A DNA stretch of 39,713 bases from the sequence record MW883060. The stretch is one strand, 5' to 3'. This DNA comes from Escherichia phage vB_EcoP_SYGE1. Every line of letters begins with the position of its first letter. Positions within the stretch are counted from its first letter, which is position 1. This document shows positions 171 through 39,713 of this stretch, one piece after another. The translations under genes and the position numbers were made by a program. The notes beneath the pieces were generated by a model that ran no database searches, was not told where the DNA came from, and worked only from the letters and a program-made list of their open reading frames with translations.

Positions 171-345
171 ATAGTCACTCAGATTTTTATGGTATATTTT
201 AAAGGACCCTCTAGGGACTCCTTAGGCCCTCTCTAAGACCCTCTTTAGGTGACACTGATAGGATGGCCTATCTTTAGGTATAGACCTTACGGATAGACCA
301 TTAGATGCTCTTTATGGGTATACCTTAGGACTTGACTCTATAGGG
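171..345. repeat. Array of dispersed short CTTTAGG/CCTTAGG-type motifs next to the terminal repeat (concatemer junction / packaging region)
   Basis: Several copies of ctttagg/ccttagg-like heptamers are visible; the position corresponds to the right-end repeat region of T7. Confidence 0.5.
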
Positions 346-3654: not shown

Positions 3655-5607
3655 TTATTGGTTCTGTACTAGAATACGAGTTGGTACAGAGTGGCGATCC
3701 TCATCGTTACGGAATGTTCGCCCGTTGTTGGAGATAGTGAACTTCAACCAGCCACCATCAGACGAGATGAAGTAAGACGCATTGTCACCAATAGGCACAG
3801 CGTTCCAGCGTCCGTTAGTCTGAATCCAGATAGTTCTCCATCGGACATCCTGTGAGAGACCTACTGAAACACCACCACCCACATCACCTTTCCACACCTC
3901 AGCCCACCCAGCATTCTTATTAACGTATCGACCATCAGCTTGGGCTTGTGTCAATCGACCATTGACCAAGTTGTTCACTTCTCCTTTGGTGTAGGCGTGT
4001 TCGTTTAGTCGGTGGTTTACCCATGCATCAATGTACATTCCATACTTATCGATATATAGGTTACCATCTGGTGGGATATACCAACCAGTCGAGCTAACAA
4101 GAGTACCATCACTCCTGAAATCGAAGTGAGTCACACGGAGATAATGTCTGATAAAGAAGTTAGCGCCATCGCCATTGTTGTATAAGCACTTAGCATACAG
4201 GTGCTCTTTGCCCCAAATGGTTGCTCGCTCAAGGAGATAGTTTACATCACCCTGCTTCTCAATGTTATGCTGAACATCAGGTGTCAGACTGCTAGTCCAC
4301 TGGTTCCAACCACCACCATGCGTTTTCTTAGTGAAACTTGAAGTGGTAGAATCAATGAAAAAGTTCTTATTAGTGTGCACCCCATCGGCTTTAAGTGAAA
4401 CTGATGTGTTGTTTTGGTAACTATGGAGATATACATCTGCGCTACCTTTGTTTGCACGACCTACGTACCAATCATTTACCCCAGCTTGCGACCCAAACAC
4501 CGCTGTTGTTCCTTCATTATTACTAGAGGTTGACTGTAGGTTAAGTCTTGGTTGTTCAGTGTTGGAGACGAAGCTACCATGTTCAGCATAGAAGTCACCA
4601 TTACTAAGTTTAACCCCTGATTTAAAAGTTGGGGTTGCTCCCTCTACCTTCTCAATGGTTCCAGCTAGGCCATTCATATTACCCAACTTGTTGGCCTCAG
4701 ACTTAGCACGGTCTGCTTCACTCTCAGAGCGGTTTGCCTCAGTGTTGGCTCGGTCAGCATGTCCCTTAGCGGTCTCAGCATGTGCAGCAGCCTTGGCAAC
4801 CTCAGCAGCAGCTTTAGTCACTTCTCCGGCAGCACGATTGGCCTCATCACGGGCACGATTGGCCTCAGAGTTGGAACGGTCAGCTTGCTTCTCGGCCTCA
4901 GCGACACTTGCGGTCATACTGTCAGCATAACCTTTAGCACGATTGGCCTCAGAGTTGGAACGGTCAGCTTGATTCTTGGACTCAACTGCTTGTGCCGTAG
5001 AGACACCTGCCTGCTGGGTCGAGCGGTCAGCTTCACGTTTCGCGCGGTCAGCTTCGTCGCGTGAGCGGTTGGCTTCCCTGTTGGAGCGGTTAGCGTGTTC
5101 ATCAGCTTTAGTAACAGCGTTCCACACAGAGGTCTCACGTTCCTTAATCTGCTTCAGCGGGACGGCATCATAGTCGCCAGTAGCGAACGCTAGGTTAACA
5201 ATCTTACGACCACGGGCATCCAAGTGACCATTATTGTTGACACCGATAGTATCCGCAGTCATGTCACGAGCCTCTTCCGCTACGTGCATTGTTTGAATCT
5301 GAGCAACGTTAAGGTCATACGCACGGAGGATTGAGCCGTCCGTAAAGTCAACCAAGCGGTCGGTCGTGGAGGTTACTCGACGTAACTCGATGGTCGTGTA
5401 GCCATCTGACGGACCCCAAGCCTTGGTCAGTGAGATGGTAGTACGTGTAGCAAAACGGTAGTCCGTATTAATCGTAAGGACCTTGCGGTCTACACCAATA
5501 AGAGTTACCACTACGAACTTACGGGCTAGATACTCAAACGGGATATTAAAATCACGCTTGGAGCCATCTAACTGGTAAGTCAAAACGGTTTTAATTACGT
5601 TAGCCAT
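3655..5607 (-). CDS. Tail fibre protein gp17 (650 aa), chimeric
   Basis: N-terminal ~150 aa match the recalled T7 gp17 tail-attachment domain; the middle is a long acidic/basic coiled-coil with ADRSNSEANRA-type repeats; the C-terminal domain is only distantly T7-like. Confidence 0.9.
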   Translation of the reverse strand: MANVIKTVLTYQLDGSKRDFNIPFEYLARKFVVVTLIGVDRKVLTINTDYRFATRTTISLTKAWGPSDGYTTIELRRVTSTTDRLVDFTDGSILRAYDLNVAQIQTMHVAEEARDMTADTIGVNNNGHLDARGRKIVNLAFATGDYDAVPLKQIKERETSVWNAVTKADEHANRSNREANRSRDEADRAKREADRSTQQAGVSTAQAVESKNQADRSNSEANRAKGYADSMTASVAEAEKQADRSNSEANRARDEANRAAGEVTKAAAEVAKAAAHAETAKGHADRANTEANRSESEADRAKSEANKLGNMNGLAGTIEKVEGATPTFKSGVKLSNGDFYAEHGSFVSNTEQPRLNLQSTSSNNEGTTAVFGSQAGVNDWYVGRANKGSADVYLHSYQNNTSVSLKADGVHTNKNFFIDSTTSSFTKKTHGGGWNQWTSSLTPDVQHNIEKQGDVNYLLERATIWGKEHLYAKCLYNNGDGANFFIRHYLRVTHFDFRSDGTLVSSTGWYIPPDGNLYIDKYGMYIDAWVNHRLNEHAYTKGEVNNLVNGRLTQAQADGRYVNKNAGWAEVWKGDVGGGVSVGLSQDVRWRTIWIQTNGRWNAVPIGDNASYFISSDGGWLKFTISNNGRTFRNDEDRHSVPTRILVQNQ

Positions 5608-11912: not shown

Positions 11913-12503
11913 TTACCTCCCCGTCTTGGTTCCTTTAGCGGCAACTATAGGTGCCTTAGTTGTGGGTTTAGAGTCGAACGCGCCGGATGCATAAGCACTC
12001 GCAGCGGAAGACCCCATGATAGCCAGCGGGTCCAGAACCATCTGTAGCTTACTCTTCTGCTTCTGTTCGCCCTTATAGATTTCTCTAATCTGGCTTGCAG
12101 CACTTTGAGTGCCACCAAGTTGCTGTGCGAAGATTGCTTGGTAGTCACGACGATAGTTCTCAGTTACCATATTGGCTTCCCGAATGAACTGTCCCTCTGT
12201 GACTCGCTTAATGCGGTCCATTGAGGAACCCTCAAGCATACTCTCCCCGATAGCCGCTCTGATAGACCCCAGAGCTTGGACCTTCTGCATGTTCTGAGCG
12301 GTCAACTCAGAGGATGCTTCCTCAAGTTTACTTCGAGCTTGCAGCGATAGGTCAGCATTCTGGATGTTCGTCTGCTTCATAAGTTCAAAGGCTTGACGAC
12401 GACCAGCAGCGGTCTGGGCGGCAATCATTTTGGCCTGAGTGTTCTGACCACTGATAGCCTGAGCGCCAGCTATAGCGATAGGAATTGCGGCTGCCCAACA
12501 CAT
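11913..12503 (-). CDS. Internal virion protein B gp14
   Basis: 196 aa with ATG start; position and length as T7 gp14. Confidence 0.85.
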   Translation of the reverse strand: MCWAAAIPIAIAGAQAISGQNTQAKMIAAQTAAGRRQAFELMKQTNIQNADLSLQARSKLEEASSELTAQNMQKVQALGSIRAAIGESMLEGSSMDRIKRVTEGQFIREANMVTENYRRDYQAIFAQQLGGTQSAASQIREIYKGEQKQKSKLQMVLDPLAIMGSSAASAYASGAFDSKPTTKAPIVAAKGTKTGR

Positions 12504-39258: not shown

Positions 39259-39281
39259 TCTCTCTATAGTGAGTTGTATTA
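39259..39281 (-). promoter_or_regulatory. Phage RNAP promoter phiOL
   Basis: Minus strand reads TAATACAACTCACTATAGAGAGATAC. Confidence 0.8.
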
Positions 39282-39339
39282 GAAAGACAATGATTAAAGA
39301 CTATGATTAAAGGGTATCTCTTTATAGGTAACAACAAGG

Positions 39340-39540
39340 CGTCTATAGGATAGGCTTTAGGCTGGTCTTTAGGCTGGTCTTTAGAAGATACTTTAAGATA
39401 GGCGTTGACTTGATGGGTCTTTATGGTTAGGCTTTAGGTGTTGGCTTTAGGATGGACGTTAGGAGGTGACTTTAGGAGGTGACTTTAGGAGGTGACTTTA
39501 GGAGGTGACTTTAGGAGGTGACTTTAGGAGGTTGTAACAG
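39340..39540. repeat. Left-end repeat array, including 5 perfect tandem copies of a 13-bp unit (aggaggtgacttt) at 39461..39525 plus a partial copy
   Basis: Dispersed ggctttagg/ggtctttag motifs, then aggaggtgacttt x5, immediately next to the terminal repeat. Confidence 0.85.
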
Positions 39541-39543
39541 ATA

Positions 39544-39713
39544 AGGGTCTCAAAGAGACACTCAAGGCAACACTCAAAGAAACACTCAAAGACAAACCCA
39601 AGGGTCATCCCAACCCTTTAGGGACCCTCAAAGTCAACTGAAAGTTGACTCAAGGTGATTGGCTGGGCTTTAGGACCCCTATGGGGGGAACTTTGGGTCC
39701 GTACACTGTGAGA
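39544..39713. repeat. Direct terminal repeat, left-end copy in conventional T7 orientation
   Basis: Identical to 1..170. Confidence 0.9.

Follow-up and report, generated by a model that had tools for sequence, protein, structure and literature searches.

A 13-bp tandem repeat beside the concatemer junction of Escherichia phage vB_EcoP_SYGE1 is an allele of a hypervariable repeat within a conserved heptamer array

Organization of the left genome end

The stretch of DNA analysed here (the window; sequence record MW883060, 39,713 nucleotides) is the complete genome of the Teseptimavirus Escherichia phage vB_EcoP_SYGE1, given as the reverse complement of the T7 orientation. Over 25 kb, genomes of this genus match the opposite strand of the window with 93-96% identity; the closest is JeanTinguely with 95.7%, and T7 reaches 93.3%. 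The 3′ end of the window is the reverse complement of TCTCACAGTGTACGG, which is a left end of the T7 type, and the T7 left end aligns there with 77.9% identity over 100% of the 814-nt query. A dozen T7-type promoters are located on the minus strand of the window, and the homologues of the E. coli promoters A1, A2, and A3 as well as an Ocr-type gene 0.3 are present in the expected order. Window coordinates are converted into T7-style coordinates by subtracting them from 39714. In T7 orientation the order of elements is the terminal repeat, TATCTGTTACA, (CCTCCTAAAGTCA)n, further CCTAAAG heptamers, the leftward promoter A0, phiOL, and then A1-A3.

The 170-bp direct terminal repeat is present at 39544-39713, which is the left copy in T7 orientation and aligns with the terminal repeats of T7 and 13a, and at 1-170, which is the right end. 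Both copies are 100% identical. The 170-bp terminal repeat of the original prediction is thus real, while its designation of the copy next to the tandem repeat as the “left” one is correct in the conventional T7 orientation only, since the window is the reverse complement. The non-coding left-end region is limited on its inner side by the T7-type promoter phiOL (TAATACAACTCACTATAGAGAGA, 39259-39281, minus strand), which was read from the sequence and corresponds in position to phiOL of T7. Immediately upstream of phiOL lies a 13-nt duplication, AAAGACAATGATT x2.3 with 94% identity (39283-39312), that is present as a single copy in T7. Between phiOL and the tandem repeat, a homologue of the leftward E. 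coli promoter A0 is found on the plus strand at 39405-39433, with TTGACT as −35 element (39405-39410), a 17-nt spacer and TAGGCT as −10 element (39428-39433). It aligns with A0 of T7, for which a start at nt 224 is annotated, and its −35 block is conserved in the relatives; in a generic promoter scan it scores below the threshold. A transcript from A0, if made, would cross the tandem array toward the DNA end. Elsewhere in the window, a family of 48-nt direct repeats with spacings of 42, 84, and 126 nt occupies 4685-5110 and includes a 21-nt tandem array at 5018-5076. In T7 orientation this region is found at about 34.6-35.0 kb, a position that, going by the T7 map, we take to suggest the tail-fibre gene.

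The concatemer-junction signal next to the array

The terminal repeat and the tandem array are separated by 11 nt of non-repeat sequence (39533-39543, plus strand TGTAACAGATA), which in T7 orientation, on the minus strand of the window, read TATCTGTTACA and represent the concatemer-junction signal. Its ATCTGTT core is located at 39536-39542 at the inner border of the terminal repeat, and TATCTGTT, the reverse complement of 39536-39543, directly adjoins the terminal repeat at 39544. The original prediction had let the tandem repeat stop 3 nt short of the terminal repeat. It actually ends at 39532, and within the resulting 11-nt gap lies the class II pause signal, which had been missed; no other neighbour of the array is as informative.

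As in the T7 concatemer junction, the conserved ATCTGTT follows a T, is located at the border of the terminal repeat and stands 4 nt from the first unit of the array, so that by its sequence it belongs to the class II signals. The core of such signals, at which T7 RNA polymerase pauses or terminates, is ATCTGTT after A, C, or T, and the sole natural example is the T7 concatemer junction (bioRxiv 10.64898/2026.02.12.705533). There, the polymerase-lysozyme complex pauses and engages gp18/gp19, leading to maturation and packaging (PMC3276506). CCCTATCTGTT is near-invariant in 27 of 27 left ends, that of T3 included, and the record of phage 13a carries the annotation “concatemeric junction” at the same place. 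The array itself lies downstream of the signal and is no part of it. Since it begins 4 nt past ATCTGTT, its first unit would be occupied by a polymerase that has paused a few nucleotides beyond this core.

The T7 junction doubles as a sigma-70 promoter of the TGnTA type, with starts just downstream (bioRxiv 10.64898/2026.02.12.705533). In the window, too, the junction signal shares positions with an extended −10 motif of the TGnTA type (39533-39541). The −10-like hexamer is TACAAC in the window, Bas103, Bas104, JeanTinguely, and Yanou, but TACAGT in T7, and as TACAAC is without the final T, the sigma-70 activity of the junction may be weaker in these phages.

The 13-bp tandem repeat

Directly inside the junction signal, the 13-bp unit AGGAGGTGACTTT is repeated head to tail in five exact copies on the plus strand (39461-39525), and the fifth is followed by the partial copy AGGAGGT (39526-39532), which bears out the five copies and partial sixth originally described. 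The perfect period-13 tract comprises 74 nt or 5.7 units (39459-39532); it reads (AGGAGGTGACTTT)5 plus AGGAGGT on the plus strand and (CCTCCTAAAGTCA)5 with flanking partial units on the T7 top strand, which is the minus strand of the window. On its inner side a degenerate sixth unit is present (39454-39466, minus strand; GGACGTTAGGAGG on the plus strand, CCTCCTAACGTCC in T7 orientation) that has two mismatches in the register of CCTCCTAAAGTCA, and T7 and Yanou have the same degenerate unit CCTCCTAACGTCC at the inner edge of the array. The wider array (39432-39532) has the highest Tandem Repeats Finder score of the window, 160, the runner-up scoring 67. With up to two mismatches the 13-mer occurs seven times compared to 1.25 expected, a number reached in none of 100 shuffles, and five consecutive exact copies in 39.7 kb cannot have arisen by chance.

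The T7 top strand of the array is nearly free of G apart from the G of TAAAG. A strand asymmetry of this kind extends over 39340-39543, where the plus strand has 34% G and 10% C and the T7 top strand is nearly G-free.

Several simple readings of the repeat can be dismissed. A coding function is ruled out, because there is no ORF and a period of 13 nt, not being a multiple of three, cannot hold a reading frame; the only frames touching the array have 25-36 amino acids, lie on the minus strand and begin in the terminal repeat. A function of the Shine-Dalgarno-like AGGAGGT as ribosome-binding site is ruled out as well, since no ORF starts downstream of any plus-strand AGGAGGT and no start codon follows; the original prediction had rightly refrained from a translational interpretation. 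A structured RNA is ruled out by the lack of any Rfam family match for the array at E-values up to 1 and by the predicted folds: the leftward A0 RNA folds no better than shuffled sequences (z=−0.01), and the RNA of the rightward strand is less structured than 197 of 200 shuffles (z=+2.08), as is expected for a G-poor sequence. Finally, a bacterial or prophage origin is ruled out, as two tandem units do not occur in any genome of a collection covering 185,579 species of bacteria and archaea.

Oriented heptamers on both sides of the terminal repeat

The 13-bp unit is part of a larger array of heptamers. CTTTAGG, the plus-strand form of CCTAAAG, occurs 23 times on the plus strand and twice on the minus strand of the window compared to about 2.5 expected per strand, and 15 of the 23 plus-strand copies are located in the end regions, where the original prediction had noticed them as dispersed heptamers. 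Allowing one mismatch, there are 32 sites per kb at the ends vs. 2.6 per kb elsewhere, and no such site is found on the opposite strand of the end regions. The left 420 nt contain 17 heptamer sites with at most one mismatch, all on one strand. Beyond the 13-bp repeat, the left array continues at 39340-39458 (minus strand) with CCTAAAG-type heptamers spaced by 12-13 bp, as identified by motif sites and Tandem Repeats Finder. Across the 14 sites of the left array the spacings are 13, 13, 13, 13, 13, 12, 13, 13, 28, 12, 12, 12, and 12 bp, and the single gap of 28 bp contains the −35 element of A0. A counterpart with the looser motifs CCTAAAG/CCTAAGG/CTAGAG is located at the right end, directly inward of the other terminal repeat, in the same orientation (171-345, minus strand), and has seven heptamers with at most one mismatch and looser spacing. 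The same motif occurs also inside the terminal repeat.

Two further small tandem arrays are found in this region. The left array contains a second perfect tandem repeat, CTTTAGGCTGGT x2.5 (39355-39384), and units matching it, ACCAG(A)CCTAAAG or ACCATACCTAAAG, number about two to five in relatives. Across the junction signal from the 13-bp repeat, the terminal repeat has a 12-nt tandem array of its own, CTCAAAGAAACA x3.7 with 84% identity (6-49 and 39549-39592), corresponding to TGTNNCTTTGAG in T7 orientation. It varies among relatives by indels of 12-14 nt, with one unit fewer in Bas104 and extra sequence in 13a and pO111, which shows that the terminal repeat contains its own variable-number repeat abutting the junction.

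The position of the left array between the terminal repeat with its junction signal and phiOL, the CCTAAAG heptamer, the strand and the spacing of 12-13 bp are the same as in T7, where Dunn and Studier are said to have named in 1983 the left heptamer string SRL and its right-end counterpart SRR. The location, the restriction of the heptamers to one strand, the homology to T7 nt 161-350, with which the left array can be aligned, and the presence of a right-end counterpart identify it as a terminal heptamer array of the T7 group. It differs from SRL of T7 in that the unit that is single there is present in five perfect copies in the window, and also the number of distal units is different. To our knowledge, the terminal heptamer arrays of T7 have no assigned function 40 years after their description, and our literature search yielded no paper on SRL or SRR of T7 and no relevant one on the copy number of tandem repeats in T7-like phages.

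When the units are pooled, the sequence logo has a fixed CC-TAAAG and free spacers, with 76% C at position +2 after the core, and 200 of 252 intervals from one TAAAG core to the next measure 12-13 bp. Outside the expansion, in the array as aligned for nine genomes, invariant columns number 45 of 59 in the heptamers and 30 of 61 in the spacers (Fisher p=0.003), or 17 of 40 in the spacers when the −35 block of A0 is excluded (p=0.001), values that are possibly inflated since aligners tend to anchor on repeated heptamers. The heptamer core is thus better conserved than the spacers, and it is strand-specific.

Two structural ideas were rejected. End protection by Chi-like sites is ruled out, because the heptamers of the two ends point in the same direction instead of being inverted. 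A hairpin at the junction could be formed by an imperfect inverted repeat of 19 nt with 79% complementarity (39432-39450 / 39561-39579), with the junction signal and the tandem array between its arms. One arm lies in the heptamer array and the other in the 12-nt repeats of the terminal repeat, and, as judged by eye, the arms change independently of each other among relatives; their similarity looks like shared motif content.

Copy number in Teseptimavirus

For comparison with relatives, uninterrupted runs of the exact unit were counted in 26 Teseptimavirus left ends, taken from individual loci. In an alignment of nine left ends the array is found directly after CCCTATCTGTTACA, at the place of the single CCTCCTAAAGTCA of T7 (T7 nt ~185-197). 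One exact copy is present in T7, Yanou, Bas102, and several IMG/VR genomes, two in JeanTinguely, AV103, pO111, ESh3, KKE5P, and others, three in 13a and JB01, four in Pila and one IMG/VR genome, five in the window, nine in Bas104, ten in Bas103, and 16 plus one variant unit in PHB20; where public assemblies rest on short reads, the counts of the longest arrays are possibly wrong. Every Teseptimavirus examined keeps the unit. Bas103, Bas104, PHB20, Pila, JB01, and 13a have the identical 13-bp unit at the orthologous site, where it is unannotated, and differ from the window in the number of copies (3-16) and in their flanking haplotypes.

The expansions are found on at least four different combinations of left and right flanks. 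In the window, TTACAA on the left is joined with a right flank of the T7/Yanou type, the right flank of Bas103 and Bas104 is TTCCTACCGTC of the JeanTinguely type, and the left flanks are TTCACC in PHB20 and TTCAGTCTCC in Pila. Therefore, the expansion has happened repeatedly. PHB20 and the IMG/VR genome UViG 2974600872 are 99.85% identical over 677 nt of flanking sequence, but have 16 and 4 exact copies, respectively, which is due either to a very fast change in copy number or to a collapse of the array in one of the assemblies. A phage of metagenome ERZ1036441 that is 96-97% identical to the window has at least four copies, and both of its contigs (12104-12174; 1-60) terminate inside the array. 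The repeat beside the terminal repeat thus breaks short-read assembly.

Copy-number variation had been one of the candidate roles put forward in the original prediction, and with the exact unit occurring 1-16 times in 26 left ends and a difference of 12 units between near-identical phages it is confirmed. The comparison with the left ends of T7 and T3 that had been proposed as a check gave one unit for T7 and none for T3, which has the junction signal and heptamers in common with the window: CCCTATCTGTT also borders the terminal repeat of T3, a phage of another genus, where four to five YYTAAAG heptamers follow, but the 13-bp unit is absent. A count varying without phenotype, together with a unit not conserved among relatives, had been named as what would speak against a role in recognition. 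The first part agrees with our census insofar as the count varies freely in viable isolates; the second does not, as the unit is conserved in Teseptimavirus.

With perfect head-to-tail units and polymorphism of the orthologous locus even between near-identical genomes, the repeat behaves like other variable-number tandem repeat loci, and the 1-16 exact copies in 26 genomes place it among them. It differs from an ordinary locus of this type by lying within an array whose core is kept across genera, and the conservation of this core motif indicates that the repeat is not simply junk DNA. Taken together, the array of the window is an allele of a hypervariable repeat that is nested in a conserved, oriented heptamer array beside the junction pause signal. 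Thus, the 13-bp repeat is an ordinary fast-changing repeat and a known kind of feature, and what the window adds is a new allele and no new element.

Origin and possible role of the array

It is almost certain that the array is a variable-number expansion of the heptamer array of the T7 type. One 13-bp unit CCTCCTAAAGTCA, as it is singly present in T7, would have been amplified to five perfect copies by replication slippage or by unequal recombination between adjacent units, and since the five units are perfectly identical, the expansion was probably recent. The oriented heptamers flanking the terminal repeat could serve as redundant sites that are bound or recognized during maturation by the small terminase gp18 together with gp19, or by a partner of theirs, and might help to mark the terminal repeat as the place of cutting. 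As such sites would be redundant, gain or loss of a unit would cost little, and the copy number would drift quickly. On balance we favour, with fair but not high confidence, a slippage-driven expansion in a redundant, probably protein-binding heptamer array for concatemer maturation. Considered by itself, a protein-binding role of the heptamers is a tentative assignment, to which we give somewhat less than even chances, and from the sequence pattern it is plausible that they are recognized by terminase, as the original prediction had suggested for the repeat, or by another maturation protein; our literature search found no binding data for the heptamers.

gp18 is reported to recognize PacB and gp19 to cut at PacC (PMC9860248), and T3 and T7 use specific sequences for terminating packaging (PMC2366019). 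Short oriented repeats beside the cut at the genome end, which are recognized by the machinery and partly redundant, are also present as R-elements of cosB and as cosQ in lambda and as packaging “A” repeats in adenovirus (PMC2366019). The likeness of the T7-group heptamers to lambda cos and the adenovirus “A” repeats is a functional analogy only. In T7 the left end enters the cell first, and the left array would therefore be the last DNA to pass the motor before the final cut at the terminal repeat, a position comparable, again as a functional analogy, to that of cosQ in lambda. The right-end array presumably lies where the terminase-binding site pacB was mapped, and the location of pacB on the right-end side of the terminal repeat counts against a packaging role of the left array. 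Furthermore, the existence of viable phages with one to about 17 copies means that there is no dosage requirement for the unit, and this equally fits the absence of any function.

The latter leads to the strongest alternative, although we regard it as unlikely: the heptamer string could be a neutral microsatellite that merely records slippage in non-coding DNA, with the five copies as its latest expansion. The 1-16 copies in viable isolates, their recurrence on different flanks and the difference of 12 units between phages of 99.85% identity are all in agreement with this, as are the variation of two more small tandem arrays within the same 400 bp and the lack of an ORF, an Rfam family and an RNA structure signal. 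However, neutrality does not account for a CC-TAAAG core that is kept while the spacers diverge, for the strictly one-stranded orientation of the heptamers or for the occurrence of the motif on both sides of the terminal repeat and inside it. The persistence of heptamers beside the same junction signal in T3 argues against it as well, since slippage alone would not hold a 7-bp core across genera.

Much less probable is that the array acts as a spacing or tuning element. The distance or DNA geometry between the junction pause or cut site and A0/phiOL would then depend on how many units are present, and changes in their number would affect pausing, cutting of the ends, or early transcription in the manner of a contingency locus. 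The array is highly mutable, its start 4 nt past ATCTGTT places the first unit under a polymerase paused a few nucleotides downstream, and the starts of the sigma-70 TGnTA promoter at the T7 junction fall at its edge. But no preferred copy number or periodicity is found among the isolates, and the junction signal itself is unchanged. A functional dosage element, with the array providing 5-17 anti-16S sites for an A0 RNA that acts as ribosome decoy, or with the count tuning both pausing and cutting by terminase, is more improbable still. If true, natural changes in copy number would represent an adaptive switch for host takeover or packaging efficiency.

A role at the RNA level is about as improbable as the dosage element. 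The leftward A0 RNA with five AGGAGGUGA, each a perfect 9-nt complement of the 3′ end of 16S rRNA, could be a decoy for the 30S subunit, or the rightward RNA would carry the anti-Shine-Dalgarno-like CACCUCCU repeats. The conserved −35 and −10 hexamers of A0 point into the array, and AGGAGGTGA occurs five times on the plus strand, all of them in the array, and elsewhere once on the other strand. Against this, the site is single in T7 and missing in T3, neither a start codon nor an ORF is located downstream, A0 is a minor promoter, the A0 RNA folds like its shuffles (z=−0.01), and the match to the Shine-Dalgarno sequence is possibly a by-product of CCTCC preceding TAAAG. Moreover, stable transcripts from the left-end region were reported to be not abundant (bioRxiv 10.64898/2026.02.12.705533).

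That the count of five, or the array as such, results from mis-assembly beside the terminal repeat is very improbable: the two metagenome contigs of one sample do break in the array and short-read counts of long arrays can be unreliable, but the 74-nt tract is shorter than ordinary reads and 2-16 copies are found at the same site in many independently sequenced phages. Least of all can the array be assumed to consist of replication-origin iterons bound by an initiator, although tandem direct repeats near a DNA end and the distance of about 180-270 bp to phiOL, presumably a secondary origin of T7, would be in line with it, because the copy number is unconstrained, the unit is without the primase pentamers GGGTC, TGGTC, and GTGTC (six in the 374-nt end region on the plus strand, too few to interpret), origins of the T7 group consist of phage promoters and AT-rich DNA, and we know of no iteron-type initiator in these phages. 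Recognition by a replication protein, the further option of the original prediction, is therefore unsupported.

Significance for T7-like phages

The preferred reading, an expansion by slippage within redundant heptamers that may serve concatemer maturation, is consistent with the pattern described above: a core that is kept, with spacers and copy number left free, is what is expected of redundant protein-binding sites. The significance of the finding is modest. For practical work, the array can be used as a fast-evolving typing marker for close T7-like isolates, and it is a trouble spot in assemblies, as contigs break inside it and counts of long arrays are possibly unreliable. For the biology of these phages, it shows that the stretch between the junction pause signal and the remaining left-end region tolerates natural insertions of 0 to >200 bp, which is useful for T7 packaging cassettes, phagemids, and refactored genomes and informs models of how the terminal repeat is recognized and duplicated.
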